From assembly GCA_965216875.1 (NCBI GenBank), contig OZ244207.1, positions 3,616,001-3,680,000 on the forward strand: a stretch of DNA of 64,000 nt, given 5' to 3'. Shown here piece by piece: positions 36,075-61,741 of this stretch (the first letter of the stretch is position 1; every line of letters starts with the position of its first letter). Made by a program: the position numbers and the translations under genes. Source of the DNA: Rubripirellula sp. Its GTDB lineage: Bacteria > Planctomycetota > Planctomycetia > Pirellulales > Pirellulaceae. The notes below the pieces were generated by a model. It did no database searches and was not told where the DNA came from. It worked only from the letters and a program-made list of their open reading frames with translations.

Positions 36075-36148
36075 AGCCAGCGGCGGGATTTGAACCCGCA
36101 ACCCTCGCATTACGAATGCGATGCTCTGCCAATTGAAGCTACGCTGGC
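36075..36148 (-). tRNA. tRNA-Thr(CGT)
   Basis: GCCAGCG acceptor stem, TCGCA-TTCGTAA-TGCGA anticodon arm, GGTTCAAATCC T-loop; CCA not encoded. Confidence 0.95.
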
Positions 36149-36338: not shown

Positions 36339-39224
36339 TCATGATCCAGACCCATTTTCTAGCAACTCGGTGATCGCCTTTTTCATTTCAGCGACCATTT
36401 TTGGGCCTCCGCCGACGTAAAGCCGAGCAATTTTCCCGTCAGGACCGACGATCACCATTTGAGGAATCGCTCGCGCCTCGTACCGATGAGCCGCCACGCC
36501 GTCGAGGTCCAGAGCGACCGGAACTTCCATCTCGTGACGCTCCATCACCGCTTTGACGTGGTCGGCCGGTTCTTCGAGATTGACCGAAACGAGTCGCACC
36601 ATCGCAGGATCGAACTCCGCAATCGCCTCTTCCACCAGAGGCATTGTCTGCATGCAGGGAGCACACCAGGTGGCCCAGAAATCCAAGACCACGATCTTGC
36701 CCTTCTGCTCACTCAATACGAATCGGTCACCGTCGAGCATGTCGAGCTTGATCTCGGGGGCCTCCTGACCAATCAACGTCGATTCCGAACCCACCGGTGG
36801 AGCCTCGCCGCCCGCGGAAGCGGAAGCCATCTTCGGTTCCACCGCAGAATGCAATACCCACTTGTTGTAGGGCAAGGACGAAACGGCTTGACCGATACCT
36901 TCGCCAAACAAAATTTGATCGACATCACGCAAGTCGAAGTTACAAAAGCCGACGACATCGCTGCGACCGGTGATCGCATCACCATCGACCGATTCAGGAT
37001 CAAAGGTTACCCGTTTGCCATCTCGCTTGAGGACCTGGGCCATATGCAAGAAGGGTGATTCCGTTTCGGGCTCTTTGTTTTCTTGAGCAGCCTTCTGCTG
37101 TTTCAACAAATCTTCGGGATGAAACCAAATGATTTGCGAGATACGACTTAGCGGAATGTCATATTCGTCTAGTTGCACTTCAACGCGAATCGAGTCATCA
37201 CGATAATTCAATAGTCGACACCGTAAGAAGTCGCCGTTTCGCGAACACAACAAATGGGTTGGTGGCGACGGTTTTTGCAAACGAGGCAACGTAAGCAGGC
37301 GTTCTTTTTTCGCCTCCTTCAGACTTGGCGGCGAGACGTTCACCACCCACTCGATCGCCTTGACCTTGTGATGCGGTACGACAGTGTTGTCGGCCCAAGA
37401 GGTTGAAAGATGCACGCCCTGTTCATCAATCGCTTGCACGAGGCAGGGAATCACATCACCCGAGCGAACATGCAAACGATGGGCATCGGGTCCGACGGGC
37501 GTCGCAGCGCTCTTGCTGTCGACCTTTTGCAAAAACAGCTTTCCGAAATTGAGTCCACGCTTTTGTTGTTGAACTCGAAGGCGTTGCATTTGAAGCGCGC
37601 GTTCGGCTGCCGCCGCGGACGAGGGGCTCGGCTTCGGAGGTGGGTCACGATAAACGATGCGGCCATCAGCCTCGTGTTTCAGGGTCGAGGCGCCAACGCA
37701 GCCAAAGCCTTGCCAACGAAACGTTGACATCCCTTTGTCGGCATCCTCGATCGCGGTCACTAACCGACCAGAAAGTTTGTGAGGGCCAAGTTCCAAACGC
37801 CCCGCGCGTCCGGTCGCTTCCGCATCCGCTCCGACCGGTTCACGTTGCATCACGATCAAAGTTCGCGCCATCTCGGCTGGCACGGAGATTTCGCCCTCAA
37901 CCTCATCACTTCGCATCACCCAATGTTTTTCGGTGACCCGTTGAACGCGTCCCGAAATACGAGTGCCATCATGCAAGAAAAGGCTCATCGGCAATTCGGA
38001 CGTTTCGTTCGGTTCGTGCGTCACCTTGACGGCGACCACATCGCCGATCGCGATGGGAACCTCTTCGGCTTCGCTGGTGACGATGAGGTTGCCCGCATCG
38101 ACGTCAAGTCTTACCGCATCGCCTGAGGTGATTGCACCATCGACGCGGGCGACGGCAATGTTCCCGCCCGATGTCGCTTTGGGAAGATTCCCCGACCAGC
38201 GAGAAATCCTGAGTCGTTCCAGCCGCACGGTGCCATGACGGTTGATCAGTCGAATGCCTCGGCCCAACTCGCGTTTGCCGACATCCTCTTTGGGCGGTGC
38301 CAGTTCGGCGAGTTTTGTGCCATCGGGTCGATAGATCATGATCTTGCCCGCTGACTGGTCGAGATACACCAGCAAACGAATCCCGGTTTTGTCCGCGAGC
38401 GAATCGACTTTTTCGACGTCAGCGGCTCGTTCATATTCACGCATGACCGCCAGCGTCTGGCCAAACGTTTCCAATCGCCAACCATCGGTGCGTTTGTCTT
38501 CGTCGCTGTCGTGATCGGCTGCGATCGCAACCATGAAATTGGGCTTTCCGACCCAAGAAAGCTCGATTTCGATCATCGCGCGATCGGGGACATCGAGATC
38601 GCCATTGATCGTCGCATCGTCCTTGTCGCTCCAGATCTGAGCACCGTCTTCTTGCCAGCCGACGGGATCCCAATTGGTTGTCGACCAGTCTTGAATACCG
38701 GCCAAACTTGCAAACACGAGCGTTGGGTTCTCTTCAAGGCGATACATCCGGCGAAGTGAGGCGGCTTTGACCTTCACCTTGCCAAACTGCTCCGATTGAA
38801 ACGTCAGCGTGGTATCGTCCCACGCGACCAAGTCACCCGACATCAAATCACCACTGACCAATTCAAAAGCGAACTGGCCTTGCTGTGTCATTCGCTGGCG
38901 GGCGGGTGGGAATTTGATCGACTTGATCGCATCGGTCAAAACTTGCATCGGCTCGACGAATGCATCGCCATGCCAAGTGATTGACTTTTCGGACGTCGAT
39001 ACACCGATTTCGCCTGCAATGGTGTTGCCATTGATCAGCGAAACGACGCCCGTCGTCTTCTCCGGAACGGGCTGAGCTTCGACGTCGCTCGTCTCTTCGC
39101 CCTTGTTCTCGGTCGTCGCCCCAAAATCCTCACCGATTCGGACGGCGCGAATTTGCTGCGCAGCCAAGCTGGCCGTCATCAGCAACAATATCGAAAACGG
39201 CAGCGTGAATCGAACCAGCTTCAT
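36339..39224 (-). CDS. large secreted protein with C-terminal TlpA-like thioredoxin domain
   Basis: Signal peptide; VVLDFWATWCAPC. Confidence 0.85.
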   Translation of the reverse strand: MKLVRFTLPFSILLLMTASLAAQQIRAVRIGEDFGATTENKGEETSDVEAQPVPEKTTGVVSLINGNTIAGEIGVSTSEKSITWHGDAFVEPMQVLTDAIKSIKFPPARQRMTQQGQFAFELVSGDLMSGDLVAWDDTTLTFQSEQFGKVKVKAASLRRMYRLEENPTLVFASLAGIQDWSTTNWDPVGWQEDGAQIWSDKDDATINGDLDVPDRAMIEIELSWVGKPNFMVAIAADHDSDEDKRTDGWRLETFGQTLAVMREYERAADVEKVDSLADKTGIRLLVYLDQSAGKIMIYRPDGTKLAELAPPKEDVGKRELGRGIRLINRHGTVRLERLRISRWSGNLPKATSGGNIAVARVDGAITSGDAVRLDVDAGNLIVTSEAEEVPIAIGDVVAVKVTHEPNETSELPMSLFLHDGTRISGRVQRVTEKHWVMRSDEVEGEISVPAEMARTLIVMQREPVGADAEATGRAGRLELGPHKLSGRLVTAIEDADKGMSTFRWQGFGCVGASTLKHEADGRIVYRDPPPKPSPSSAAAAERALQMQRLRVQQQKRGLNFGKLFLQKVDSKSAATPVGPDAHRLHVRSGDVIPCLVQAIDEQGVHLSTSWADNTVVPHHKVKAIEWVVNVSPPSLKEAKKERLLTLPRLQKPSPPTHLLCSRNGDFLRCRLLNYRDDSIRVEVQLDEYDIPLSRISQIIWFHPEDLLKQQKAAQENKEPETESPFLHMAQVLKRDGKRVTFDPESVDGDAITGRSDVVGFCNFDLRDVDQILFGEGIGQAVSSLPYNKWVLHSAVEPKMASASAGGEAPPVGSESTLIGQEAPEIKLDMLDGDRFVLSEQKGKIVVLDFWATWCAPCMQTMPLVEEAIAEFDPAMVRLVSVNLEEPADHVKAVMERHEMEVPVALDLDGVAAHRYEARAIPQMVIVGPDGKIARLYVGGGPKMVAEMKKAITELLENGSGS

Positions 39225-39229
39225 CGCAA

Positions 39230-40276
39230 TCACCGCTCGTAAATGGGTAGGAAGCGATAGTTTACCGCTAGCGCCAAAAGCGAAAGCGTTGTCGACACAT
39301 AGGTGCCTTGATTCCCCTGCATGCTGCCATCGTCGTTTTGGACGTTCTTGAGCCGTCGCACAAGGAGCTTGTTCCATTTCTCCCAAGCATCAATGTCGCC
39401 TTGAAACAAGGCTTGGGCTTGGTAGTAACTTTGGTATTCGATACCGCCGTGGCCAGCACTGCCGCCGTTGATTTTGTTCTTCAAATACTGAAGCGTCGAA
39501 TCATATTGCTTCAGGTCTTTGCGACGAGAGATCGCGAACACGAGCGTTCCGATCGAGATGCGTGCTAGGGATTCGTCGAATCCGCCGATGCCACCCGAGT
39601 AGGCGACCTGGCCTGAGGGTGCCGTCATTTTCACAAAGTAGGAAATGGCTTTGTCCACCGCTTCATCGGGAACTTCGATGCCAGCATTGCGTGCAGCCAA
39701 CAACCCCATCAACACGGCGCCCGCAACGGACGTGTCAGCGTCATTGCCACTGGGACTGTAGCGCCAGGCCCCCATTGAGTTGTTCTTTTGGCTGGTAACC
39801 GCTGCGCGAACGGCAAGTTCGAGGGATTGGCCGATCGTTAGATTCTCGGCACTCGAACCCGACGGCCAAAGATTGCGATCGTCCACCGTCCCGTAGGCTT
39901 CGGCCAGTCCGAGCATGGCGAAACCGTGGTGGTACATGCTGTTTCCGAAGTAACCGGTGCCCTTGTCTTGGGTGCGGATCATGTTGCGCAAACAGCGGCG
40001 AATGTTACTGGCGTACAAACCAAAGTTGGGATCTTCGCCCGAGGCCAGGAAACACATCAGCGCCATGCCGCCAACACCTGGTCCTTGGTGACTCGATGGC
40101 CAACTGCCATCTTCTTTTTGCGTGCGCACCAAGAACTGCAAGCCGCGGTCGTACATCTCACGCACGTCACGTGGGACCGCATCACCGGTGCGAATCTCGA
40201 CCGCTTGCGCGTGCACGATTGACGGCAGCAACATCGGTAACAGAATCACCAACACCATAAAGATTCGAGAGCTCAT
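39230..40276 (-). CDS. prenyltransferase/squalene-cyclase-repeat (QW-like) protein
   Basis: QKEDGSW, MYHHGFAMLGLAEAYG, GAWRY..DADTSV, QNDDGS. Confidence 0.82.
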   Translation of the reverse strand: MSSRIFMVLVILLPMLLPSIVHAQAVEIRTGDAVPRDVREMYDRGLQFLVRTQKEDGSWPSSHQGPGVGGMALMCFLASGEDPNFGLYASNIRRCLRNMIRTQDKGTGYFGNSMYHHGFAMLGLAEAYGTVDDRNLWPSGSSAENLTIGQSLELAVRAAVTSQKNNSMGAWRYSPSGNDADTSVAGAVLMGLLAARNAGIEVPDEAVDKAISYFVKMTAPSGQVAYSGGIGGFDESLARISIGTLVFAISRRKDLKQYDSTLQYLKNKINGGSAGHGGIEYQSYYQAQALFQGDIDAWEKWNKLLVRRLKNVQNDDGSMQGNQGTYVSTTLSLLALAVNYRFLPIYER

Positions 40277-41061
40277 TCTTCCTCCTCGAACTGTGCCTGC
40301 AGGTGCGGCTCCATCGCTTTGCCCTGTTGGATCATCGCAGCGATGACCTTCCATTCGTCATCATTGAAGTAGGGACGCAGTTTTTCCGTCGGCACTTTGC
40401 TCATCTGCAAAAGTACCGCATAGAAATGCATACTCGACTGGCCGTAATACCTTGGCGGCTTGGTCTCATCGACGATCAATTCGATGATCGCGTCGCGTTG
40501 CTTCCGCGTCATCGGGACCTTGCGTTCAATCATCGAGAGCGTCATTCGAATGTTGTCGATGTAGATCGCCTTCTCGCGTTGGCGCTTCATCGCTTCGAAT
40601 TCGTGCTGTTGGTTTTCGTCCAAGATCGAATTAACTGTCTTGGCGAACAACGACTTGGGACCATGCAAACCGGCGTTGTACCGAGTTTGAAGTGGACGTG
40701 TCTTTTGCCAAACCTGCTGCCACTCGTCGCGTGGGATACCGCCAAAGGTCATGCCGCGTTTGACGCGTTCGTAGTCATTGAAGAAGCGGTGGATATCGCC
40801 ACTTCCAGCAAGTTCGAGTTTCTCGCGTTGGGCGTCCGTCAAATGCACCGCCATATCGACGAAATCGATCTGCACCTGCAGCGCTTCATCGGTTCGCTTC
40901 TTTGCAGCCGCGTGCGTGCGTTGATTGCCAAATATGTTTTGAACGAACGATTGCTCCGTAAACTGAATCAAGTCGTTGGCCATCACGACCTGCGCCGACG
41001 CTGGCTTCGCCACAGCGACGAGTGCCAAAAAACTGACTGCGATGATGAATCGAAGCTTCAT
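40273..41061 (-). CDS. secreted hypothetical protein
   Basis: Signal peptide; ATGA coupling to both neighbours. Confidence 0.78.
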   Translation of the reverse strand: MKLRFIIAVSFLALVAVAKPASAQVVMANDLIQFTEQSFVQNIFGNQRTHAAAKKRTDEALQVQIDFVDMAVHLTDAQREKLELAGSGDIHRFFNDYERVKRGMTFGGIPRDEWQQVWQKTRPLQTRYNAGLHGPKSLFAKTVNSILDENQQHEFEAMKRQREKAIYIDNIRMTLSMIERKVPMTRKQRDAIIELIVDETKPPRYYGQSSMHFYAVLLQMSKVPTEKLRPYFNDDEWKVIAAMIQQGKAMEPHLQAQFEEEE

Positions 41062-42041
41062 TGCTGAGCCTCCAATTCGGTCGTCTCCTCGGTCTCTGAC
41101 GCGGCCGCATCTGGCAGGTCCGCACTGGGTAGGTCCGCGTTGGGAGCTTCGGCGGTCCCATCATCACCAGCCTTTGGCTCGCTCTTTGGCTTCGGTTTTT
41201 CAAACGCCGGCAGTTCGACACCGAACGAAAACGAGTCTTGAACGCCAAGTTCCATCTGCCAACCAAAGTTGACTGACGTGTTGTTGTTGCGTTGTGTCCA
41301 AAGGGACTGCTGTCGATCGGTCAGGTGAGGTTTCAAGATGTAGGTTTCTGGGAGCCGGGCGTATTGGGGATACATGAACAGCCGGACTCCGGTTGACCAG
41401 CCCTTGCTCCATTTTTCGTTCAATTCGACCTTGATATCGTCATGCTGTTTGGGCGTTAGCAACAACGCGTCGTCGATGTGAACCAGCATGGTTCCGAGGG
41501 AAGCGTCTCGTTCGGCGGCGGCTCGCGCGGCCAACTCCTCTCCATAACGCTGAGCCACTTCGGCAGGCATGGTCTCTTTGATCACCGTTTCCAGCGCCGC
41601 GGTTATCTGGGGCTGAGGCTTGGGCCACTGGCTGGCGGCCTGGCGGATCTTTTGCAGGTCTTCGTAATGCTTCGAAAGGTGAGCGACAGCGAGTCGTCCA
41701 GCTCGATGAATCTCGTCAAATTGTTCGTCGTTGGGCTGGCAAACCTTTTTGACAAAATGCAATTCGACGGTAAGCACTTTGGACACAAATGGCGAATACA
41801 TGTTGGCAAAATCGCCATCCACGTTTTTGCGCACAAGCTCGGCCGGCTGAAGCGCCATGACCGGTACCGGCGCAGCCGGTCGAGCAGGCTTTCGCTCGCC
41901 ATTGATGAGATTGCCCAACACTTTCAAGACACCGCCTTCGTCTTGGGCATGAGTGCTCGACAGCATGCCCAGAACGATCGCGCTGACGACAGCAAGTCGT
42001 TTCACGCCGCAAAGGTGTTTCGTCAGTAAGCGATCAAACAT
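41058..42041 (-). CDS. secreted hypothetical protein
   Basis: Signal-like N-terminus; TGATG overlap with the upstream stop. Confidence 0.75.
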   Translation of the reverse strand: MFDRLLTKHLCGVKRLAVVSAIVLGMLSSTHAQDEGGVLKVLGNLINGERKPARPAAPVPVMALQPAELVRKNVDGDFANMYSPFVSKVLTVELHFVKKVCQPNDEQFDEIHRAGRLAVAHLSKHYEDLQKIRQAASQWPKPQPQITAALETVIKETMPAEVAQRYGEELAARAAAERDASLGTMLVHIDDALLLTPKQHDDIKVELNEKWSKGWSTGVRLFMYPQYARLPETYILKPHLTDRQQSLWTQRNNNTSVNFGWQMELGVQDSFSFGVELPAFEKPKPKSEPKAGDDGTAEAPNADLPSADLPDAAASETEETTELEAQQ

Positions 42042-45000
42042 CAGTCGTTCTGCCAACCCTCAAGCTGGTTGAAGTACTTGTCCAATCCAGTGCGGAACTC
42101 TTCGGGCAATGTCGCTCCGGCCGTTCCGGTCGACTGGCTGGATGCCGTCAAGTCTTCACGAACTTCCTTTTCATTCACTCCACTTCCGACCAACGCAAGT
42201 GCAGGTGTCTCGGTGTCGCCGCCACCGCCACCACCAGGACTTGCGCCACCACCGCCGCCACCGTTCGGGTTAAACCGCTTCGACTGCAGCAACAATTCGA
42301 TGATTTCAGTCTCCGCAGCAATCGCCGGTGCACCTGTCTCGGGACGTCGCAAAATGTCGACCGTCTCAAGCATGACATCTTCGACTTTCGACAGGAGCTT
42401 GATTTCCTTCGCGAATTGAGCTTGCGCGTCGGGCAACTCCTTGATTCGCTCGACGACTTTCTCCATTCGCACGCGGAACTCTTCTTGAGTTCCCGATAAC
42501 TTCTCGCCTGTCATCGTGTGTTCGGTATCGGTGACGGCAGGACGAGCCTGTTCGGCGACGCGTGTCTGCTCACGCAATTTCACTTCGCCTTCTAAGAGTT
42601 GCAAAACTTCCAATACGATCGATGGTGGCAAACTGCCAGCCGATTTGCAGCCCGGTCACAAACCGCCCTTGGTCACTTCAACCAGGTCTTCGGCCCAGCG
42701 ATCAAAGTTCTCACTCCAGTATTCCGCCTGTGAGATCGAAAGTCCGTTTTCTTTCTTCAAGTCATCACTCAGATGCCGAAGTCCCGCGGTCACGTCCTGA
42801 TCACGCATGTCATCCAACACCACTTTGAACCGCATGAAACGGCTGCGTTCGAAATAAGCAGCCATGTCGTCCATGATGTGCGAGGCTTCCTGGCTCGAAA
42901 CCGATTCGGTTTCAGACAGTTTCGCAAAGGTGTCTGCATTGCCTTCTTTCTGGCGGTTTGAGACCCCGAAAGTATCCGCGACCATCGAGCCGAGTTTCAT
43001 CGCAACTTGTTGCTGCTTTCGCGACGACGCCTTCAACCGCTTGACCAGAGTGCTGCCTTCAAGATTGGCAAGCACGTTGTTGAGTTCATCAACGATCTTT
43101 TCGAACTCGGCAAGCAGATCCTCTTGTTGCTCGACCGCTTCATCCACTTGTTCGTTCGCGGGTGGCGGTGGCTGATCACTCTTTTGGCCGCCGCCGGCAA
43201 GCATTGTTGTTGGCAACGTCAATCGTGGTTTCCCACCACTATCTTCTTGCGGTTCGCTTGGTTCCTTCGACTCAGGCTGATGATGCGACGATTCAACATC
43301 GCTGATTGTCGGAACCTTTGTGGGATCTTTTGGCTCGCCTGGCTTTTTGGGGTCAGCCGCGCCCGATTGAGTCAATCGGTTTTGCCCAGCCTTGGGAGCC
43401 TGGTTCTGTTGGCTCGGTGGACTTGACGGTTTCGCTGGAGCCTTTGATGCCTGCTTGAGCAGGTCGGCAACCGAAGGCATCCGGTTACCGCTAATGTCTT
43501 TAAGAACCTGCATCATCTCGGCCCACTTGTCCAAGTGCCCAACGCCGATCTCTGGATTCCGCATCGCCTCTTTGAGCAACATCTCGCCGAACGAGGTCAG
43601 GTTGGTGAGCCGACGCCCGTTGGCTCGTTCACCCTGGGCCTGCGAAGCGAGCAGGCGTCGGTTCTCGGGCCGATCGAGTTGCTCGGGCGACATGTCACGC
43701 AGTTGCTTGTTCGTTTCGTAAAGCTGCATCTCGCGATCGCGAACGTCCAATGACATGCGATGCCAGCGACTCAGCTCGGCCGTCACCCAAATCGCATGCT
43801 GTTCGGCGTTCAGTACGTTAAAGACGCAGGTCGGCGAATAGATGCGAGGTCGATCGGGAAAGTAGTCTTCGACAAACACGCGTACGGCCAACGGCTGTGG
43901 CGCGATCTCATTCTCTTTGGCCGAAAAGGTCGCGGCCAACTCGAGAAACTCGGCTTCGTAATCGCCGGCGCCGATCACCTTTTCGCCTTTGGCAAAACCT
44001 TGGACGGTTTCATCAAGTCCAACCCACTGAATCCCGACTCGTTTGACGCCAAAATCGTCGCGAGCTCGCACCTTGAACGTCAACACTTCGGTGTCGAGCA
44101 GAACCTTGCGGCGTGGCAGGTTTTCGCAAATCAACGTCGGCATTTCGTCATCGACGCCTTCGATGGTCAGTTCGAAGGGGCGTTTGCCGCTGAGCCCAAA
44201 CTGGTCCTCCCACTGCATCTCGATCTTTTCCGTTCCGTCAATCTTGACTGGTGGTGTCGAGAACTCGGAATCGGTTGTTGATTGAGGCTTGCCATTGACG
44301 AGCGCTGCCGATAGCTCTCGTGATGCGGTGGCCGTCAACGTGGTCTCGCTTCCTTTGACGACCGTCAAGGTCGCACCACGAATACTCTTTTCCAGCAACT
44401 TTTTGCGGCCGAGGTAATCGGGCAACTTCACTGCAGCCGACAAACCACTCAATTCGGGTCGCAACATCGGTTCGATTTTGGTTTCACCGGCAAAGTCACC
44501 GACGCGAACATTCAAATTGCTGTCGGCGATTTGCCCTGGAAGTTCAAAGTGATACTCGCTGTCGTCAGCAAGATCGGCCTCTTCGGCGGTGTGTCCTGCG
44601 AGGTTGACCGACGCCTTGGATGGTTTCCATTGCGTCGACTCTTGCAACTTGATCGCAACGTCGAACGATTCACCATGGGGCACGACGATCCGCTCGGGAA
44701 GTGGTTCGATCGCCGCGAACGTATAGCGAGGCGTCTCGCCCCAAGGCTTCAGGAAGCGTGCCCACGCGTTCTTTGCCGCAGCGGCGGTGAACAACAAGAG
44801 GGCAACGGCAACAAACCCGAGGAAGCCAACCGCGTACCCGCGTTGGATGTGTTGTGGATTGGGGATCGCGCCTCGCAGGTCTTGCTGCTCGACATTCTCG
44901 GCCACTTGCTTGATGGCCGCTTCGACCAGCTCGGGCGAGCGTGATTGCTCGGACGAATCTTCCGAGAGCTCGATCACACCAAGCAGTTGATCGCCAGCAC

Positions 45001-45349
45001 TTGGATGGGTTTGCGAAAGTAGACGCGCCAATTGGTCCATTCGCCTGCGTCGCCAGACCCAGCGTTCCAAACCGACCGGCACAAGCGCACACGCTGCGAT
45101 CGCGCCAAAGAAGATCACCGTACGAATGATCGCTGGCGTGTCAAAGAGACGATCAAGCGTATAGGTCAGCAGAAAGCCGACCAGAATGCCAATGACCGCG
45201 GCGGCGAACGCCTCGAACATCTTCAACCGCCAAACCCGCCCACGGAAATCGAGCAGTTTCGCTTTGAGCGATTCGGGGATCTGAAGTTGGTTATTCGACG
45301 TGACCTGCATGGGACCTTTTCTCCCAAGTGAAATAACTTGTGTTGTCAT
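42041..45349 (-). CDS. membrane-anchored coiled-coil protein, putative selenoprotein (in-frame TGA at 42656-42658, UPGC), ~1102 aa
   Basis: 897-aa and 196-aa ORFs share one frame: ACC AAG GGC GGT TTG TGA CCG GGC TGC AAA; SECIS-like hairpin follows; alternative is a nonsense allele. Confidence 0.72.
42600..42655 (-). promoter_or_regulatory. candidate bacterial SECIS element
   Basis: UGGCA-GUU-UGCCA with the loop 22 nt after the UGA, extendable by GG/CC around a bulged C, AUC/GAU and UGCAA/UUGCA. Confidence 0.55.
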
Positions 45350-45478: not shown

Positions 45479-47689
45479 CTAGATCAGTCCTACCGCTTTT
45501 CTCCAAACCCAAAAGATTCCCAAAAGCAGGACAATCAGGGCGAACGCCAGCGGGTGACTCCAAAGTTGCAAGCGTCGCACCGATGGCGGTGGCATCGGCA
45601 AATCAGCCAGCGCCGCGATCACTTGGTCGATCTCCTCGGGTCGAACCGACTGGCCCCGTGAAACCATCGACAACTCCTGCAGCACTTCGGGCCGAGCCGG
45701 CTTGCCGACTTGTTCAATCTGTTGGCCTTGCACGAAAAAGTTCGCCTGCAGCGTCGCGCCCGTTTGTCGGCAAGCTAACGTTACGTCATGTTTGCCTGGT
45801 TCCGTTGGCACGTAACGACCTTCGAAAACACCCCAGCGATCGCCTTCGGCAGTCAAACGAATCGTGTCCGAATTGCCCGAAGGCGCGATGATTCGGGCCG
45901 TCACATCACCCTTGGCCAGCGGTTCGCCGCCGTTGTCCATCACATGAGCATGGAAGGTAAGCGTGCGTCGCATTTCGGGTTGATCGGGCGTGTAGTAAAG
46001 ACGCATCGTTTCGCCCTTGGCCATGTTGCGTTGGTACGCCATCCAGCGCACCACCTGACCCCAAAAGCGATAGTGGTACTTGTCTTCGACACCTTTACGC
46101 CACCGCCATGCACCGTCGGTTCCCATGAACAGAACCTTGCCCGCGCCGTAAGTGCGCGTCGCCAGCAACGGCAAGCGACCGTACTTGTTTGACATCTCGC
46201 CATGAACCGCAAGGACTTCGCAACCGGCTTTGGCGCGAATCACTGGAGCGTACCACTGGAATCCAGGCAGGTCTTCCCAAACTTGAACGTTCTCCTGGCT
46301 GGTATCGGCAAGCTTGGTCAACAAACTGCTTCGCCCGCGTTCAGTCAATTCAAAGTGGCCGGGTGTTCGCGATCCCCAACCGCCAAGTTGGGCCTCGTCC
46401 AAGATCACGGGGCACAACTCCTTCAAACTCGTCTCCAACAAGCTGAATTGTCGCCCCTGCCAACCAGGCATGAAGACAAGACCGCTGGCCTGATGTTCGA
46501 CCAAGCCTTTGACCAGATCGCATTGCTCTTCGGTCAATTGGCCATCTTCAAGTCCAACGTCTCCGAGAAAGACAACGTCGTATTGCGAAAGATCTTCAAT
46601 CGCTTCAGGAAAGGCTTTGATGTAATCCTTTGATCCGCCACCCACCTTGTCCAATCCGGGATGAAACAGCAAGCAAGAGACATCGACACCGGGATCGCGC
46701 GACAACGCGTTTCGCAAATAGCGGTATTCCCACCGCGGGTACGACTCGACCAGTAGGACTTTCAGTTTCTCTTCGCGAATCGCAATTGGCGCCGATTGTT
46801 CGTTGTTGCCGGGGATCGTTTCGTCGGCATGTTTGGGGATCGTCAAAGTGACCGAGTAGTCGCCCGTGACTTGTGGCTTCCAATTGATTGCGTCGGTCGT
46901 GCGACCCATCGGGGCAATGCGTACATCTTTGGTAAGCGTTTCGCCATCGGAGGTTTTCAGAGACACCGTCGTTAGGAACTCTCGTGGCAGTGAGCTGTCG
47001 ACGGTAAATGGAATCCGCACCACCTTGCCCGCCGTTCCAAAGGTTGGCAGGTCAACACTGACCAATTCCAAATCGGGCAATCGTGTGGCGCTGCCCGAGG
47101 CCACGGTGAAAACGGGAACGCCTTTGGTGCGCAGTCGCGATGCCGCTTCCACGGGCGGTTTGCCTTGGTTCCAATCGCCATCGGAAATCAATACGATCCC
47201 CAGCAGTTGGTTGACGCGTGCCGCCACTTCCAACAAGGGTTCGTTCAAATCCGTGCCAATCGAATTCGCTTCACCCACCGACTCGGGCGAAGCAATCGGT
47301 TCGACAACCACGTTAAGTTTTTCATCGAGTGCGTTCCACGCGTCGGCTTTGGTCAGCGAATCGATCGCCTCGGCTCGGGTGATCGCGCCGACTTCGGCGT
47401 CGCCAGTGACAACATCACGTGTCTGCATGCTTGCCGATTGGTCCCACAAGACGGCAATGGTTGGCTTTGCGTCGGGACGGTATTCTTCGACCCACTCGGG
47501 TTGGTTCAACAGGATCGCCACCATGGCAACGATCACAACGCGAAGCGTTTCCAAGCCGGCCACCGACCGCGAATAGCCGCTTCGCTGCCACGCGAAAACA
47601 CCAAGCGCCGCGGTTGCCAACACAACCACAACCGCTGCGACGACCGAAAAGGTTGTCCCCATGAAGGTGAGCTGCTGAACGGAGTTCAT
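45479..47689 (-). CDS. membrane protein with vWA and glutamine-amidotransferase-like domains
   Basis: VLWDQSASM, LISDGDWN, PRWEYRYLRNAL, YGAGKVLFMGTDGAWRWR. Confidence 0.82.
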   Translation of the reverse strand: MNSVQQLTFMGTTFSVVAAVVVVLATAALGVFAWQRSGYSRSVAGLETLRVVIVAMVAILLNQPEWVEEYRPDAKPTIAVLWDQSASMQTRDVVTGDAEVGAITRAEAIDSLTKADAWNALDEKLNVVVEPIASPESVGEANSIGTDLNEPLLEVAARVNQLLGIVLISDGDWNQGKPPVEAASRLRTKGVPVFTVASGSATRLPDLELVSVDLPTFGTAGKVVRIPFTVDSSLPREFLTTVSLKTSDGETLTKDVRIAPMGRTTDAINWKPQVTGDYSVTLTIPKHADETIPGNNEQSAPIAIREEKLKVLLVESYPRWEYRYLRNALSRDPGVDVSCLLFHPGLDKVGGGSKDYIKAFPEAIEDLSQYDVVFLGDVGLEDGQLTEEQCDLVKGLVEHQASGLVFMPGWQGRQFSLLETSLKELCPVILDEAQLGGWGSRTPGHFELTERGRSSLLTKLADTSQENVQVWEDLPGFQWYAPVIRAKAGCEVLAVHGEMSNKYGRLPLLATRTYGAGKVLFMGTDGAWRWRKGVEDKYHYRFWGQVVRWMAYQRNMAKGETMRLYYTPDQPEMRRTLTFHAHVMDNGGEPLAKGDVTARIIAPSGNSDTIRLTAEGDRWGVFEGRYVPTEPGKHDVTLACRQTGATLQANFFVQGQQIEQVGKPARPEVLQELSMVSRGQSVRPEEIDQVIAALADLPMPPPSVRRLQLWSHPLAFALIVLLLGIFWVWRKAVGLI

Positions 47690-49701
47690 GATGCTGCTCC
47701 TTCATTGGCGAACATTGGCCCCGATCCCTTCGTCACCTTGCGTGGGATGCACAACGCTGCCTCGAGCACGAGTGCAACGAGCATGATGACTAAGAAGAGC
47801 CGCCAGATCTCCTGGATCAACGACGTGCCACTTCCTGCGCTGTCGTCGACACGGTCAAAGTCGAGCTGTTCGAATAGCCCCGCCACACGATCTTGAGAAA
47901 CGACCGCTGCGACGTCTTCGTCAGCGCTGCGATTGATGGCGAGCAATCGATCCTCTTCGCGGTAGATCCCAGCGTGCGACGCGAACTCACTTGACAACGC
48001 ATCGACCTCGCCAGCGAGTTGCCGCCATTGGGCCGTGTCGGTGGTCGCCAGGGCGCCAGCCGAAACTTGTCGTGTGTTGCCCAGTGACTTGGCACCTTCG
48101 GAAAGGGCTCGTTGAATCATCGCGTAAAGCACCACCCCATCTCGAGCGAGCGACGAATCCGACTGCAGCGCCGTCGTGCTGCAGAAGTAGATGTTGCGAG
48201 CATCGGTGACCGCCTGGGCAAGCAGTGCCGCACCACCGTCAAGTGTGGCGAGAGTCAGCCGTTCTCCCTCGAGCTCGCAGTAGCGATGAACCTTCCACTG
48301 TCCCACGGGAAGGGACGCACCACTTCGCACTTTTGCCAACAAGCCTTGATCACCCGACCAAGTCGAAACCTGAAACGTTTGTTCCTTGTCTTGCCAGTCT
48401 GCCCAGGAAACACCAGCAAACGAATCGGTCGAAGGCGTTGTGGGAGGAAAAAAGATGACCTGACCGCCCCGATCCAAGAATGCATTGAGCTGTCCGCCAA
48501 GGCTGTCGGCGGCGTCGCCACTGGGCAAGTCTGATTGCCAAAGCACGAGCGAAACCTCGTTCCAGTTCACGCCGATCAATTGATCGGGTGAAACCGAAAT
48601 CGCTTCGCAGCGAATCTCCTGTGACGGCGAAATCGAAGCTGCAAACTCGAGCGGCCGGGTTGCGTCGGGATCATCACTGACAATCACGGTCTTTCGCACG
48701 ACCGCTTCGTCGTAAACAAAAAAGAACTCATTGTCCGCGGGACTGGTGTCGGTTGGAATCGAAACGCGTCCCCAACCTCGCGTCTTGCCGCCGTCGAGTT
48801 CAAAGGGAATGTTCTTCAGATCAACTTCCGTCCCGGTGATCTCAGCCGAGAACTCGCTCCGCGCGCCGTCGAGTTCCAACGTGATCGGAATCGTCTGAGT
48901 CGATTCCGCCGGCGTCATCTGTTCGATGCGCAGCGAAAGCAACAGTTCGGGACCGTCCTCGCCGACCACGCGACGCGCATCGGTCACACGTATCGAACGG
49001 TTGGTGGGATCCACATCGGTGTAGGCCAACAAATGGAAACGCACCATTTGCGGCAGTTCCTGCAGTGACTTGCGAACCGCCGTCCAGCGTCCGCTCTCAT
49101 CTTTCCAGTCGTTCCGGCGGACGTCGCTGCAGATCCAGATTTCACAGCGACTCGGGCGATTGGCCCGAATGTACTCGTCGGCAACCTCCAACATCGTTGG
49201 CACATCTGCCGACGCACTCACCGCCCCAGTCTCGGGCAGGTCCTGCAGTACCTCGGGCGATTCAATTTCGACGGCTCGCTCATTCACACTATCGATGAGG
49301 ACGTAGCGATTCGATTCGAGCAAGCTTAGCGAGCGGACCAGTTGGTCGACGCCCGACTGTAATTTGGTTCGGCCACCGGGACCACTCTGCGTCATACTTG
49401 CCGATCGATCGAGCAGGATGATCGTCGTGTCGACCTTGCTGCCAGCCGCGACGCCGATCCAACCACTGGCAAGTGGTCGTGCAATCGCAAACAGCAATCC
49501 TGCGATGGCAAGCGTTCGCGCGGCAAGGATCAACCATTGTCGCAACCGAGCGTAACCGCGCGACATTCGATTGGCCTGCAACAAAAAGGCCATTGCCGCC
49601 CACTGCACGGTTTGAAACCGGCGTTGGTTGATCAAGTGAATGATGATCGGTAGCGCGATTACTGGAATCGCAAACAGCATTGCAGGCTGAATGAAACTCA
49701 T
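47686..49701 (-). CDS. BatA N-terminal double-TM domain plus vWA protein
   Basis: LPIIIHLINQRR..WAAMAFL, LLDRSASM. Confidence 0.87.
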   Translation of the reverse strand: MSFIQPAMLFAIPVIALPIIIHLINQRRFQTVQWAAMAFLLQANRMSRGYARLRQWLILAARTLAIAGLLFAIARPLASGWIGVAAGSKVDTTIILLDRSASMTQSGPGGRTKLQSGVDQLVRSLSLLESNRYVLIDSVNERAVEIESPEVLQDLPETGAVSASADVPTMLEVADEYIRANRPSRCEIWICSDVRRNDWKDESGRWTAVRKSLQELPQMVRFHLLAYTDVDPTNRSIRVTDARRVVGEDGPELLLSLRIEQMTPAESTQTIPITLELDGARSEFSAEITGTEVDLKNIPFELDGGKTRGWGRVSIPTDTSPADNEFFFVYDEAVVRKTVIVSDDPDATRPLEFAASISPSQEIRCEAISVSPDQLIGVNWNEVSLVLWQSDLPSGDAADSLGGQLNAFLDRGGQVIFFPPTTPSTDSFAGVSWADWQDKEQTFQVSTWSGDQGLLAKVRSGASLPVGQWKVHRYCELEGERLTLATLDGGAALLAQAVTDARNIYFCSTTALQSDSSLARDGVVLYAMIQRALSEGAKSLGNTRQVSAGALATTDTAQWRQLAGEVDALSSEFASHAGIYREEDRLLAINRSADEDVAAVVSQDRVAGLFEQLDFDRVDDSAGSGTSLIQEIWRLFLVIMLVALVLEAALCIPRKVTKGSGPMFANEGAAS

Positions 49702-50609
49702 CGAATCCCCCGCGACTTGGTTCGGCCGGCCAGGAACCGCAGCAACACCTGCTCGTACGCTTCATCCACGCTGATTCGGTGATAGTCGATCGCCGACTCA
49801 AGCACGATCGATTTGATTTGATCCAAATAGGTGTGCAGCGCCTTTTGATACCGATCAACAATTTCGGTAGGTTCAGCAAAGATCGACGTGCCCCCTTCCA
49901 TGTCAACAAACCGCGTCGGCCGTCGAAACTCGAAGCCCAGTTCTTGAGGGTCGAGCAAATGAAAGACCGCCACGTCATGTTTGCGAAAACGAAGGTGGTC
50001 AAACGCTTCACGCAGCTGTTCGGGATCGACGAACAAATCAGACATAATCACGACAAGTGCGCGCTGCCGCGTCGTTTCGGCAAACTCGTGCAATCGGTTG
50101 ACCAATTGCGTGTCGCCCGCCGCGTCGGAATGCTCGAGCACATCGAAGATGCCTCGCAAGTGCGACGGCGTTCGTCGGGGTGGAATCGTGCGAACGATTT
50201 CCTCGGCAATGCAGGTCAAACCGACCGCATCGCCTTGCTGGACGGCCAAGTAGGCGAGCGAACCGGCCAACCGCCGAGCGTATTCAATTTTGGTCACGTC
50301 GCCGGAACCAAAGTTCATGGAACCGCTCGTGTCGAGCACCATGCAGCAGCGCAGGTTCGTGTCCGCTTCGAACTCTTTGACGTAGAAACGATCGGTGCGA
50401 CCATAGGCGCGCCAATCGAGACGCCGCAAATCATCACCAGGGACATAGCGTCGGTATTCTGCAAACTCGACGCTGGCACCGCGATGTGGGCTCGCGTGCA
50501 TCCCCGAGACACTTCCGACCATCGCCCGTCGCGCGAACAACGGCACCGCCGCAAGTCGTGCCAACGCCTGCGGGTCAAGGAAGCTGCGATTGTTATCGTC
50601 GGGGAGCAT
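49698..50609 (-). CDS. DUF58 domain protein
   Basis: GASVEFAEYRRYVPGDDLRRLDW, VKEFEADTN, LDTSGSM. Confidence 0.93.
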   Translation of the reverse strand: MLPDDNNRSFLDPQALARLAAVPLFARRAMVGSVSGMHASPHRGASVEFAEYRRYVPGDDLRRLDWRAYGRTDRFYVKEFEADTNLRCCMVLDTSGSMNFGSGDVTKIEYARRLAGSLAYLAVQQGDAVGLTCIAEEIVRTIPPRRTPSHLRGIFDVLEHSDAAGDTQLVNRLHEFAETTRQRALVVIMSDLFVDPEQLREAFDHLRFRKHDVAVFHLLDPQELGFEFRRPTRFVDMEGGTSIFAEPTEIVDRYQKALHTYLDQIKSIVLESAIDYHRISVDEAYEQVLLRFLAGRTKSRGIR

Positions 50610-52631: not shown

Positions 52632-53756
52632 TTAACCCCGCGCTGCCGAAGCCGATGCGCCACTATCGATCCCACCTTCGACCGTTTCCTTGACCAGACG
52701 ACGCACGATTTGGCGCGCGTCAACGCCTTCACTTTGTGCTGCAAAGGTCGTGATCATGCGGTGCGTCAACACGGGCTCGGCAACCGCTTCGATGTCTTCG
52801 AGTCGCACCATGTATTGCCCGGCAAGCGCCGCACGTGTCTTGCCACCTAGAATCAAATACTGAACCGCACGCGGACCAGCCCCCCAAGAAACAAGCGGCT
52901 TGAGCCAATCAGGGGCGACGTCTTCGCGGGGACGAGTCTTGCGAACAAGCTTGACCGCAAATTGGTAAATGTGATCCGGCACAGGAACGCGACGCGCCAA
53001 GTGTTGGAACGCCAAGATGTCTTCGGCATGCAACAGCGCGTCGAGTTTGGGCAATTGATCACCCGTCGTTGTTCGCGCGATCTGAATCTCTTCGGCTTCC
53101 GATGGATAGTCGAGCTCGATCAGGAACATGAATCGGTCAAGCTGCGCCTCAGGCAACGGATACGTTCCTTCCTGCTCGACCGGGTTTTGGGTGGCAAGAA
53201 CCAAGAAAGGTTCGTCCAAATCGTACGGCTTGCCGAGCACCGTGACGCGATGCTCTTGCATCGCTTCCAACATGGCAGCTTGGGTCTTTGGTGGAGCTCG
53301 GTTGATCTCGTCGGCCAAAACGATGTTGGCAAACACTGGTCCAGGCACGAACTGAAACTCACGACGTCCCTCGGCCGTGTCTTGCAGGATGTCGGTGCCG
53401 GTGATGTCCATCGGCATCAGGTCGGGTGTGAACTGAACACGCGAAAAATCGAGCGACATCGTTTCGGCGACCTTGCTGACCAAAAGCGTTTTGGCCAAAC
53501 CAGGCACCCCCATCAACAAGGCGTGACCGCGAGCAAACAGACAGATCAATAATTGCTCGATCACCTCCGATTGACCGACAATCACCTTGCCCAATTCTTG
53601 CTTCAGCTTTGCGTGGCACTCCTGCAACCGTTCGATGTGCTGGACATCATCCGAACTGAGCTCTTCAGACGTGCCAGCACTTGCCTGCGAAGGGGAATCA
53701 TTCATCGAACGGGGATGCTCCGAAGTCAACGGGGAAAAACCAGGTGATGGGTCCAC
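52632..53756 (-). CDS. MoxR family AAA+ ATPase
   Basis: GVPGLAKT, QFTPDLMPMD, ADEINRAPPKTQ, EGTYPLPEAQLDRF; start may be 53705. Confidence 0.95.
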   Translation of the reverse strand: MDPSPGFSPLTSEHPRSMNDSPSQASAGTSEELSSDDVQHIERLQECHAKLKQELGKVIVGQSEVIEQLLICLFARGHALLMGVPGLAKTLLVSKVAETMSLDFSRVQFTPDLMPMDITGTDILQDTAEGRREFQFVPGPVFANIVLADEINRAPPKTQAAMLEAMQEHRVTVLGKPYDLDEPFLVLATQNPVEQEGTYPLPEAQLDRFMFLIELDYPSEAEEIQIARTTTGDQLPKLDALLHAEDILAFQHLARRVPVPDHIYQFAVKLVRKTRPREDVAPDWLKPLVSWGAGPRAVQYLILGGKTRAALAGQYMVRLEDIEAVAEPVLTHRMITTFAAQSEGVDARQIVRRLVKETVEGGIDSGASASAARG

Positions 53757-61660: not shown

Positions 61661-61733
61661 GCGGCTGTAGCTCAGTTGGCAGAGCATCACGTTGCCAACG
61701 TGATTGTCGTGGGTTCGAATCCCATCAGCCGCT
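61661..61733 (+). tRNA. tRNA-Gly(GCC)
   Basis: GCGGCTG/CAGCCGC acceptor stem, TCACG-TTGCCAA-CGTGA anticodon arm, GGTTCGAATCC; CCA not encoded. Confidence 0.95.
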
Positions 61734-61741
61734 CTTATTCG

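Follow-up and report, generated by a model that had tools for sequence, protein, structure and literature searches.

The 64,000-nucleotide stretch of Rubripirellula sp. DNA analyzed here (referred to as the window; positions 3,616,001-3,680,000 of the single 8.26-Mb contig OZ244207.1, assembly GCA_965216875.1) carries a gene whose frame is interrupted by a TGA at 42658..42656, and this codon very probably encodes selenocysteine (Sec) in a membrane-anchored protein of about 1,100 residues. A sequence-only reading of the window had placed Sec898 in a membrane-anchored protein of ~1102 amino acids, and the proposal is now supported by several lines of evidence. The TGA pairs with Cys codons in orthologs, the RNA directly downstream is constrained in the TGA forms as a hairpin, and the machinery for Sec insertion is present in the genome and co-occurs, as judged by selA, with the TGA across genomes. 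The Sec residue would lie in a flexible loop of a protein encoded in a Bat-like MoxR/DUF58/BatA gene string, and we favor a role of this loop in redox chemistry. Coordinates are window positions on the minus strand unless stated otherwise.

The 5' part of the gene is an open reading frame (ORF) of 897 codons (42656..45349) that starts with ATG and terminates at the TGA. Past this codon the same frame stays open for 204 further codons, up to a second TGA at 42043..42041, and reads ...EVTKGGL-[TGA]-PGCKSAGSLPPSIVLE. The ORF, the position of its TGA, the open frame behind it and the flanking residues were all reproduced as the sequence-only reading had given them, and so was the coupling to the next gene: the terminal TGA overlaps an ATG (TGATG), which is in frame with the ORF at 41058..42056. 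At the other end, translation may in fact begin at codon 14 (ATG, 45310) rather than with the ATG at 45349, as orthologs align only from about residue 7-20 of the protein (window 45310-45349) and one of them (G285) has a stop codon immediately before the Met that matches codon 14. Could the TGA be a misread TGC or TGT? Contigs of four public runs show TGA and no alternative base at 42656-42658. Runs X1 and X2, which probably represent the source strain, yield contigs of ~977 and ~135 depth without a single difference over 42300-43000; the X5 contig, from an algal metagenome of a separate study and a 99%-identical strain, has 7 listed differences in 701 nucleotides (nt), all of them away from the TGA; and a short X6 contig covers the site unchanged. 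A look through the public sequencing runs turned up none of RNA.

To follow the codon across genomes, we used the read-through protein as query in a search that translates across stops and keeps a tally of them. In a set of 40 relatives, 11 genomes have clear orthologs (the window's own counted), and 8 of these 11, again with its own included, have exactly one in-frame TGA. Of 401 genomes sampled evenly across the order, 108 have an ortholog at E <= 1e-40, and 15 of these carry the TGA; a phylum-wide sample, in which the counts are a floor since a stricter first look was used, adds three TGA forms in other classes. Altogether the TGA occupies the homologous loop position in 23 genomes belonging to 14 genera and 7 families (42-82% protein identity; all translated), a recurrence far above what chance would give, and it is thus no peculiarity of this strain. 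In all 23 genomes it sits between the invariant motifs DRWAE..LV and SLPPS, and in 19 of them the context is GG.-U-(P/R)G.. (U, Sec). Four long-loop Sec forms (G010, G474, G439, and G808) have a loop 5 residues longer that reads VGPG-U-. The residues right after the TGA (PG.KS.GSLPPSIVLEVL..LE.E..LRE.TR) are conserved in frame as protein, in TGA and Cys forms alike. Three further reports of in-frame stops were rejected as Sec sites: the TGA of G285 lies ahead of the likely start codon, that of G110 (G110:C1:1659100-1660700) falls in a poorly aligned insert in the cytoplasmic-loop region of the N-terminal part, and a TAA reported for G309 was not seen by tblastn.

The residue found at this column when no TGA is present is mostly Cys. 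A 38-row alignment holds 13 U rows, and the 25 TGA-free orthologs have Cys (21), Ser (2), or Gly (2). The two Ser rows, G360 and G294, are the closest TGA-free relatives (62-63% identity), and the Cys of G007 aligns exactly with the U of G010 (GPG-C-PDGG versus GPG-U-PNGG). Database homologs give a similar picture: the 102 evaluable rows among the 120 best comprise 76 with Cys and 26 with Ser (the motif was not extracted for the other 18). These 120 homologs are all named "hypothetical protein" except for one, which bears the UniRef name "DUF4175 family protein." The homolog comparison that the sequence-only reading had called for thus finds contiguous homologs with mostly Cys at the column.

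Cys forms differ from Sec forms in more than this one residue. They usually read C-x3-C-P-G-C or C-G-A-C-P-G-C, so that a second Cys at -4 or -3 is present in 20 of 21 Cys forms versus 1 of 19 Sec forms. A Cys at +3 occurs in 3 of the 19 Sec forms, all of them in the window's genus (g1). The UxxC motif put forward by the sequence-only reading therefore holds for this genus as a local feature and does not extend to the family; more generally, the CxxxC or CxxCxxC cluster of Cys forms usually gives way to a single Sec. On the gene tree, a quick IQ-TREE run with 44 rows, a single 28-row clade (Shimodaira-Hasegawa-like approximate likelihood ratio test, 97) takes in all 19 Sec rows together with 7 Cys rows, including G007, and 2 Ser rows, and at least 5 changes of the Sec label are required. 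This distribution indicates that the TGA has persisted along branches of 0.2-0.9 changes per site and has repeatedly been exchanged with Cys or Ser.

The sequence-only reading saw no sel machinery, which is true of the window, but the genome search that it proposed for selA, selB, selD, and tRNA-Sec found all four elsewhere on the contig above curated cut-offs. The tRNA-Sec scores 71.5 bits with Rfam RF01852 and is called tRNA-SeC with anticodon TCA by ARAGORN; selD (249 bits), selA (507 bits), and selB (343 bits) are clustered at 325-331 kb, all above their NCBIfam cut-offs. Three AhpC/TSA-family genes of the same genome have one in-frame TGA each (Table 1). The two contexts read are GGUTKEC (Prx-type) and HWUPHC (UxxC-type), and in both of these genes the stem of a hairpin in the predicted fold begins ~14-17 nt past the UGA, with the loop GGUCG in one and CGUGA in the other. 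The tRNA-Sec, the selD-selA-selB cluster, and the TGA-bearing AhpC/TSA-family genes together indicate that the organism uses Sec. Across genomes, selA is above the cut-off in 22 of 23 with the TGA form versus 13 of 52 with a TGA-free ortholog, an association that is indicative only, because related genomes are not independent and its significance is overstated. Within the cluster, the selD match (model positions 7-309; contig 325282-326163, minus strand) lies inside an open frame of 749 amino acids, about twice the usual SelD length, which suggests a putative fusion with another domain.

How would the ribosome tell this UGA from a stop? In bacterial selenoprotein genes, for example, E. coli fdhF, an in-frame selenocysteine insertion sequence (SECIS) directly follows the UGA, and bSECISearch looks for an apical loop of 3-14 nt that starts with G at 16-37 nt from the UGA. 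The RNAalifold consensus of eight TGA forms predicts a SECIS-like hairpin with a lower helix AUCGG/UCGAU, in which 42644-42640 pairs with 42622-42618, and an upper helix of 5 bp, UGGCA/UGCCA, in which 42638-42634 pairs with 42630-42626. Its GUU loop (42633-42631) begins 22 nt past the UGA (37 nt in G010), and its position, size, and first G all lie within the bSECISearch limits. Across 18 distinct TGA-form sequences from 19 genomes, 98.9% of the upper-helix cells are paired, compared with 58% in 20 Cys forms; for the lower helix the value is only 76.7%. The closing pair of the upper helix is CG in 13, GC in 2, UA in 2, and UG in 1 of the TGA forms, and it forms in 2 of the 20 Cys forms. Each side of this covarying pair occupies a synonymous third codon position (Ala/Arg GCN/CGG and Pro CCN). 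Its covariation score of 0.173, versus 0.085 +/- 0.018, was matched by none of 500 shuffles, and partner columns shifted in a sliding control are 22-58% paired. The motif GGCAGUUUGCC is found in 18 of 19 TGA forms, while Cys forms use mixed codons for the same residues; three codons are frozen in the TGA forms only, namely, Ser AGT (19/19), Leu TTG (18/19), and Gly GGC (18/19). The four long-loop forms have a putative extra hairpin that starts ~9-13 nt past the UGA, the arms of which differ between lineages yet remain complementary, and they also carry the GGCAGUUUGCC/GACAGUUUGCC motif.

A number of observations weigh against this reading of the TGA and of the loop. The folding energy of the window's 80 nt is no better than that of shuffled sequences (z = +1.08), and the four long-loop TGA forms, with z = -0.78 to -1.65 when folded, are not exceptional either, so the support for the hairpin is comparative and comes largely from one covarying pair. 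An Rfam scan of 42540-42700 at E <= 10 returned no match beyond a chance 12-bit viral pseudoknot. An alternative 10-bp helix (columns 1-10 with 20-29) is 86.7% paired; it shows no covariation, and for this reason the short GUU hairpin is preferred. One TGA form comes from a 71%-complete metagenome-assembled genome (MAG; G220) with neither selA nor tRNA-Sec above the cut-off. Another, in an 83%-complete MAG (G193:C481:9850-13109), has a 1-nt deletion four codons past the TGA that shifts the frame, so that this copy is broken unless the assembly is in error. Since some orthologs have Ser or Gly at the site, the residue is dispensable in some lineages and not universally required. As for function, the idea that a thioredoxin-fold gene farther down the gene string tracks the Sec or Cys state was rejected, as linkage of the two genes holds for Sec, Cys, and Ser forms and for most Gly forms; since this linkage is independent of the residue at the site, it gives no specific support for a redox partner.

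In the mechanism that we propose, the in-ORF hairpin, with its 5-bp upper helix, its GUU loop 22 nt past the UGA, and a weaker lower helix, would recruit SelB-Sec-tRNA(Sec), and the ribosome would read through the UGA to make one protein of ~1,100 residues instead of two of 897 and 196. The product would be anchored by three N-terminal transmembrane helices, and its large C-terminal part, presumably periplasmic, would consist of immunoglobulin (Ig)-like domains, helical bundles, and a disordered linker. Sec898 would then be exposed in a flexible loop between two long helices, with a single selenol usually replacing a Cys cluster. We favor the inference that the Sec loop is a redox-reactive (selenol/thiol) element of a MoxR-DUF58-BatA envelope system with a TlpA-like protein.

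If the residue is indeed Sec, the main functional alternative is binding of a metal or metalloid by the loop (Cu, Zn, Hg, or an Fe-S-type ligand set), which would then take no part in thiol/selenol redox chemistry, a possibility to which we give a minor but appreciable weight. The CxxCxxC or CxxxCxxC clusters of the Cys forms fit such a role, and according to section 7 of PMC13188914, a capacity for binding is predicted for about 20% of selenoprotein families, with metals making up ~70% of that capacity. Set against this, most Sec forms would offer one chalcogen ligand only (Cys at -4 in 1/19 and Cys at +3 in 3/19), the loop is predicted to be flexible, and the gene string encodes a thioredoxin-fold protein. 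A bolder proposal, somewhat more doubtful than metal binding, joins two ideas: that the Sec loop is a redox-sensing or peroxide-reactive element and that selenium supply sets the ratio of the truncated 897-residue form to the full-length protein, which would follow from a UGA placed 204 codons before the end. If true, assembly or activity of the MoxR-VWA machine would depend on both selenium and redox state.

The remaining rival explanations concern the TGA itself. The first takes the locus as a conserved split gene, in which translation stops at the TGA and a protein of ~196 amino acids is re-initiated at the TTG 24 nt downstream. Standard gene calling does yield 897 plus 196 amino acids, and the weak TTG start noted by the sequence-only reading is real: it is the sole in-frame start 3' of the TGA in this genome (42631..42629), and a TTG is the first in-frame start past the TGA in 18 of 19 forms (+9 in 17 and +14 in G010), a regularity that counts in favor of a split and against Sec. 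The same TTG, however, turns out to lie inside the SECIS-like hairpin, where it straddles the loop and the 3' arm, with no Shine-Dalgarno-like stretch 5' of it, and G024 has CTG at the site, where the first possible start, a GTG (+14), would omit the conserved SLPPSI. Nor does a split gene account for a stop that coincides exactly with the Cys column of contiguous orthologs, for frozen AGT and GGC codons and a covarying closing pair that a start codon cannot explain, or for TGA forms that are almost confined to selA-positive genomes. We consider it improbable.

Slightly less probable still is that the UGA is read without Sec, by a near-cognate Trp or Cys tRNA, or that it acts mainly as a regulated terminator, with the 897-residue truncation abundant and the full-length protein minor. 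Sec insertion in bacteria competes with termination by release factor 2, which lends this idea some general plausibility, but leaky read-through would need neither the co-occurrence with selA (22/23 versus 13/52) nor a TGA-specific hairpin nor the pairing with Cys. A pseudogene or sequencing error, in which a Cys codon TGC or TGT was mutated or misread into TGA, requires a single-base change and might seem to gain from the nearby frameshift of G193, but it is effectively refuted already by conservation, as the same TGA recurs in 23 genomes over deep branches, the 204 codons downstream are conserved as protein, and contigs at depths of ~977, ~135, and ~39 from two studies agree. None of the four outcomes that the sequence-only reading had named as speaking against Sec (a genome lacking the sel genes, TGC or TGT in the reads, homologs that are non-Cys or routinely split, and a TGA unique to this strain) was what we found.

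Table 1. Features of the putative selenoprotein gene and its surroundings (window coordinates unless marked as contig).
Feature	Position	Strand	Basis or remark
MoxR-type AAA+ ATPase, first in string	52632..53756	-	Pfam AAA_3, E = 4.5e-62
DUF58 (VWA-like) protein	49698..50609	-	Pfam DUF58, E = 5.5e-46
BatA-N/double-transmembrane-anchor protein	47686..49701	-	Pfam BatA, E = 2.1e-17; TIGR02226, E = 8.6e-22
736-aa gene directly upstream of the putative Sec gene	45479..47689	-	Adjacent to ortholog in 32/36 loci
Whole putative selenoprotein gene	42041..45349	-	1,102 codons plus stop; contiguous orthologs of 1,075-1,116 aa
Predicted N-terminal membrane module, residues ~26-192 (transmembrane hairpin, cytoplasmic helical insert, third transmembrane helix)	44774..45274	-	Hydropathy and AlphaFold2 helices
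Beta-rich region, residues 220-513 (tandem Ig-like sandwiches, probably periplasmic)	43811..44692	-	AlphaFold2, pLDDT ~85-94
Predicted helices, residues 515-636			AlphaFold2
Predicted disordered Pro/Gln/Ser-rich linker, residues 638-728	43166..43438	-	AlphaFold2, pLDDT < 50
Predicted C-terminal helical domain, residues 731-1024	42278..43159	-	AlphaFold2
UGA probably read as Sec, residue 898	42656..42658	-	Loop position kept in 23 genomes; Cys in most TGA-free orthologs
SECIS-like hairpin	42618..42644	-	RNAalifold consensus, eight TGA forms
TTG, gene-caller start of separate 196-aa ORF (42041..42631)	42629..42631	-	In hairpin loop and 3' arm
Predicted Gly-rich disordered stretch, residues 1025-1074			AlphaFold2
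Predicted terminal helix, residues 1083-1102			AlphaFold2
1,015-aa protein with C-terminal TlpA/ResA-like thioredoxin fold (WCAPC), last in string	36339..39386	-	Pfam AhpC-TSA, E = 7.5e-22
AhpC/TSA-family gene with in-frame TGA	contig 6090313-6090681	-	
AhpC/TSA-family gene with in-frame TGA	contig 1772056-1772424	+	
AhpC/TSA-family gene with in-frame TGA	contig 4481535-4481927	-	

The architecture of the protein is predicted from hydropathy and from an AlphaFold2 model built on a 58-row alignment, which has a mean predicted local distance difference test (pLDDT) score of 76.5. Hydrophobic windows lie at residues ~42-66, 71-96, and 168-195. Both the N terminus and the loop after the second of these helices are positively charged, which suggests an N-in topology and a periplasmic location for the C-terminal ~900 residues. 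The domains predicted along the chain are given in Table 1. The Sec loop itself (residues 894-904) has a pLDDT below 50 and connects helices 868-890 and 909-934, for which the values are 83-95. Searched against the PDB with Foldseek, the full model retrieved only generic tandem Ig-like chains, with template modelling scores of at most 0.13 (query-normalized), and the C-terminal helical domain gave no functional lead there. The read-through protein matches no family at E <= 0.01 in Pfam-A and NCBIfam release 20. A DUF4175 identity was considered and rejected, as there is no Pfam hit at this threshold and the sole link is the UniRef name of one homolog.

The gene is a conserved member of a Bat-like gene string. 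On the same strand, the order is a MoxR AAA_3 protein, an EF-hand/beta-propeller protein, a DUF58 protein, a BatA-N protein, a 736-aa protein, and the putative Sec protein, followed by three small or medium ORFs and the 1,015-aa protein with the TlpA/ResA-like WCAPC domain. We call the string Bat-like since a MoxR ATPase, a DUF58 protein, and a BatA-type protein are encoded on one strand with short gaps or overlaps. In Pfam, the 736-aa protein scores 29.0 bits for the Filamin repeat, compared with a cut-off of 26.9 bits, and has GATase1-like and VWA matches below theirs. Downstream, the genes for the 332-aa and 262-aa proteins are each detectable in 19 of the 36 ortholog loci. In 17 of the 20 genomes examined for it, the thioredoxin-fold gene follows the ortholog and shares its contig and strand; the exceptions are G038 and G267, in which it is on a different contig, and G007, the contig of which is too short to tell. 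In G038 and G267, both Gly forms of genus g37, the match to the 1,015-aa homolog stops near residue 850-890, before the thioredoxin-fold domain.

The locus shares much with selenoprotein genes of the E. coli fdhF type, including the in-frame UGA, Cys homologs, a hairpin with a G-first loop ~20 nt downstream within the coding sequence, and the Sec machinery. It differs from them in encoding a membrane-anchored Ig-like/helical protein of ~1,100 amino acids, which belongs with neither the thioredoxin folds nor the molybdopterin enzymes, in the 3-nt GUU loop with no Rfam match, and in the position of the Sec in a loop predicted to be disordered. The Cys orthologs of Planctomycetota have the same length, architecture, and neighborhood as the putative Sec protein, at 40-75% identity; TGA-free orthologs differ from it in the residue at the site, which is Cys (usually in CxxxC or CxxCxxC), Ser, or Gly, and in the absence of the conserved hairpin. 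Compared with Bat (Bacteroides aerotolerance) or MoxR-VWA operons, the string has the same MoxR AAA_3, DUF58, and BatA-N genes, whereas the putative Sec protein had no similarity to BatA-E in the searches run. A proposal summarized in passages of PMC3557215 sees Bat proteins as exporters of reducing power or as reductants of damaged proteins in the periplasm, but bat mutants of L. biflexa show no oxidative-stress phenotype, which leaves the redox role of Bat unsettled.

Has this family been seen before? Table S9 of PMC4807772 lists a "hypothetical" selenoprotein candidate of planctomycete P1, with a gene split in two by TGA, Cys in the closest hit (Rhodopirellula sallentina), and a predicted SECIS; the table identifies this candidate by IMG gene numbers only, and it may belong to the same family. 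If it does, the family had one earlier listing without a description. By their descriptions, none of the 119 selenoprotein families and subfamilies in Table 1 of PMC13188914 (2026) resembles the putative Sec protein; most rows of that table carry Pfam or NCBIfam identifiers, and a few carry cd or PTHR identifiers. The nine new families of deep-Sep, as given in the available part of PMC12013277, differ from it as well. Full-text literature searches found no paper connecting selenocysteine with DUF4175, BatA, MoxR, or aerotolerance. The designation as a candidate new selenoprotein family, made by the sequence-only reading, stands because there is no Pfam or NCBIfam match and nothing alike in the table of PMC13188914. 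We take the family to be real, new, and well supported, with recoding of a known type, although Table S2 of deep-Sep, the groundwater-MAG survey, and S1/S2 Text of PMC4807772 may bear on priority.

Such a family would add to the selenoproteins one that falls outside the thioredoxin-fold and dehydrogenase classes and in which a large envelope protein carries the Sec on a flexible loop. The gain of Sec accompanied by loss of the neighboring cysteines is unusual. Since standard annotation splits the gene into two "hypothetical proteins," the annotation would be wrong in all genomes that have the Sec form. The function of MoxR/DUF58/BatA clusters is unsettled, and a residue of redox type within one of them also offers a concrete position, residue 898, to probe.

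Two kinds of minor observation concern the ends of the string and the rest of the window. As listed, the 1,015-aa ORF begins with TTG at 39386 and shares 157 nt (39230-39386) with the 374-aa ORF before it, and its real start is for this reason probably further downstream; orthologs of the protein align from about residue 75-116. A tRNA-Thr (CGT) gene at 36075-36148 lies directly past the last gene of the string, and a tRNA-Gly (GCC) gene is found elsewhere in the window at 61661-61734 on the plus strand.

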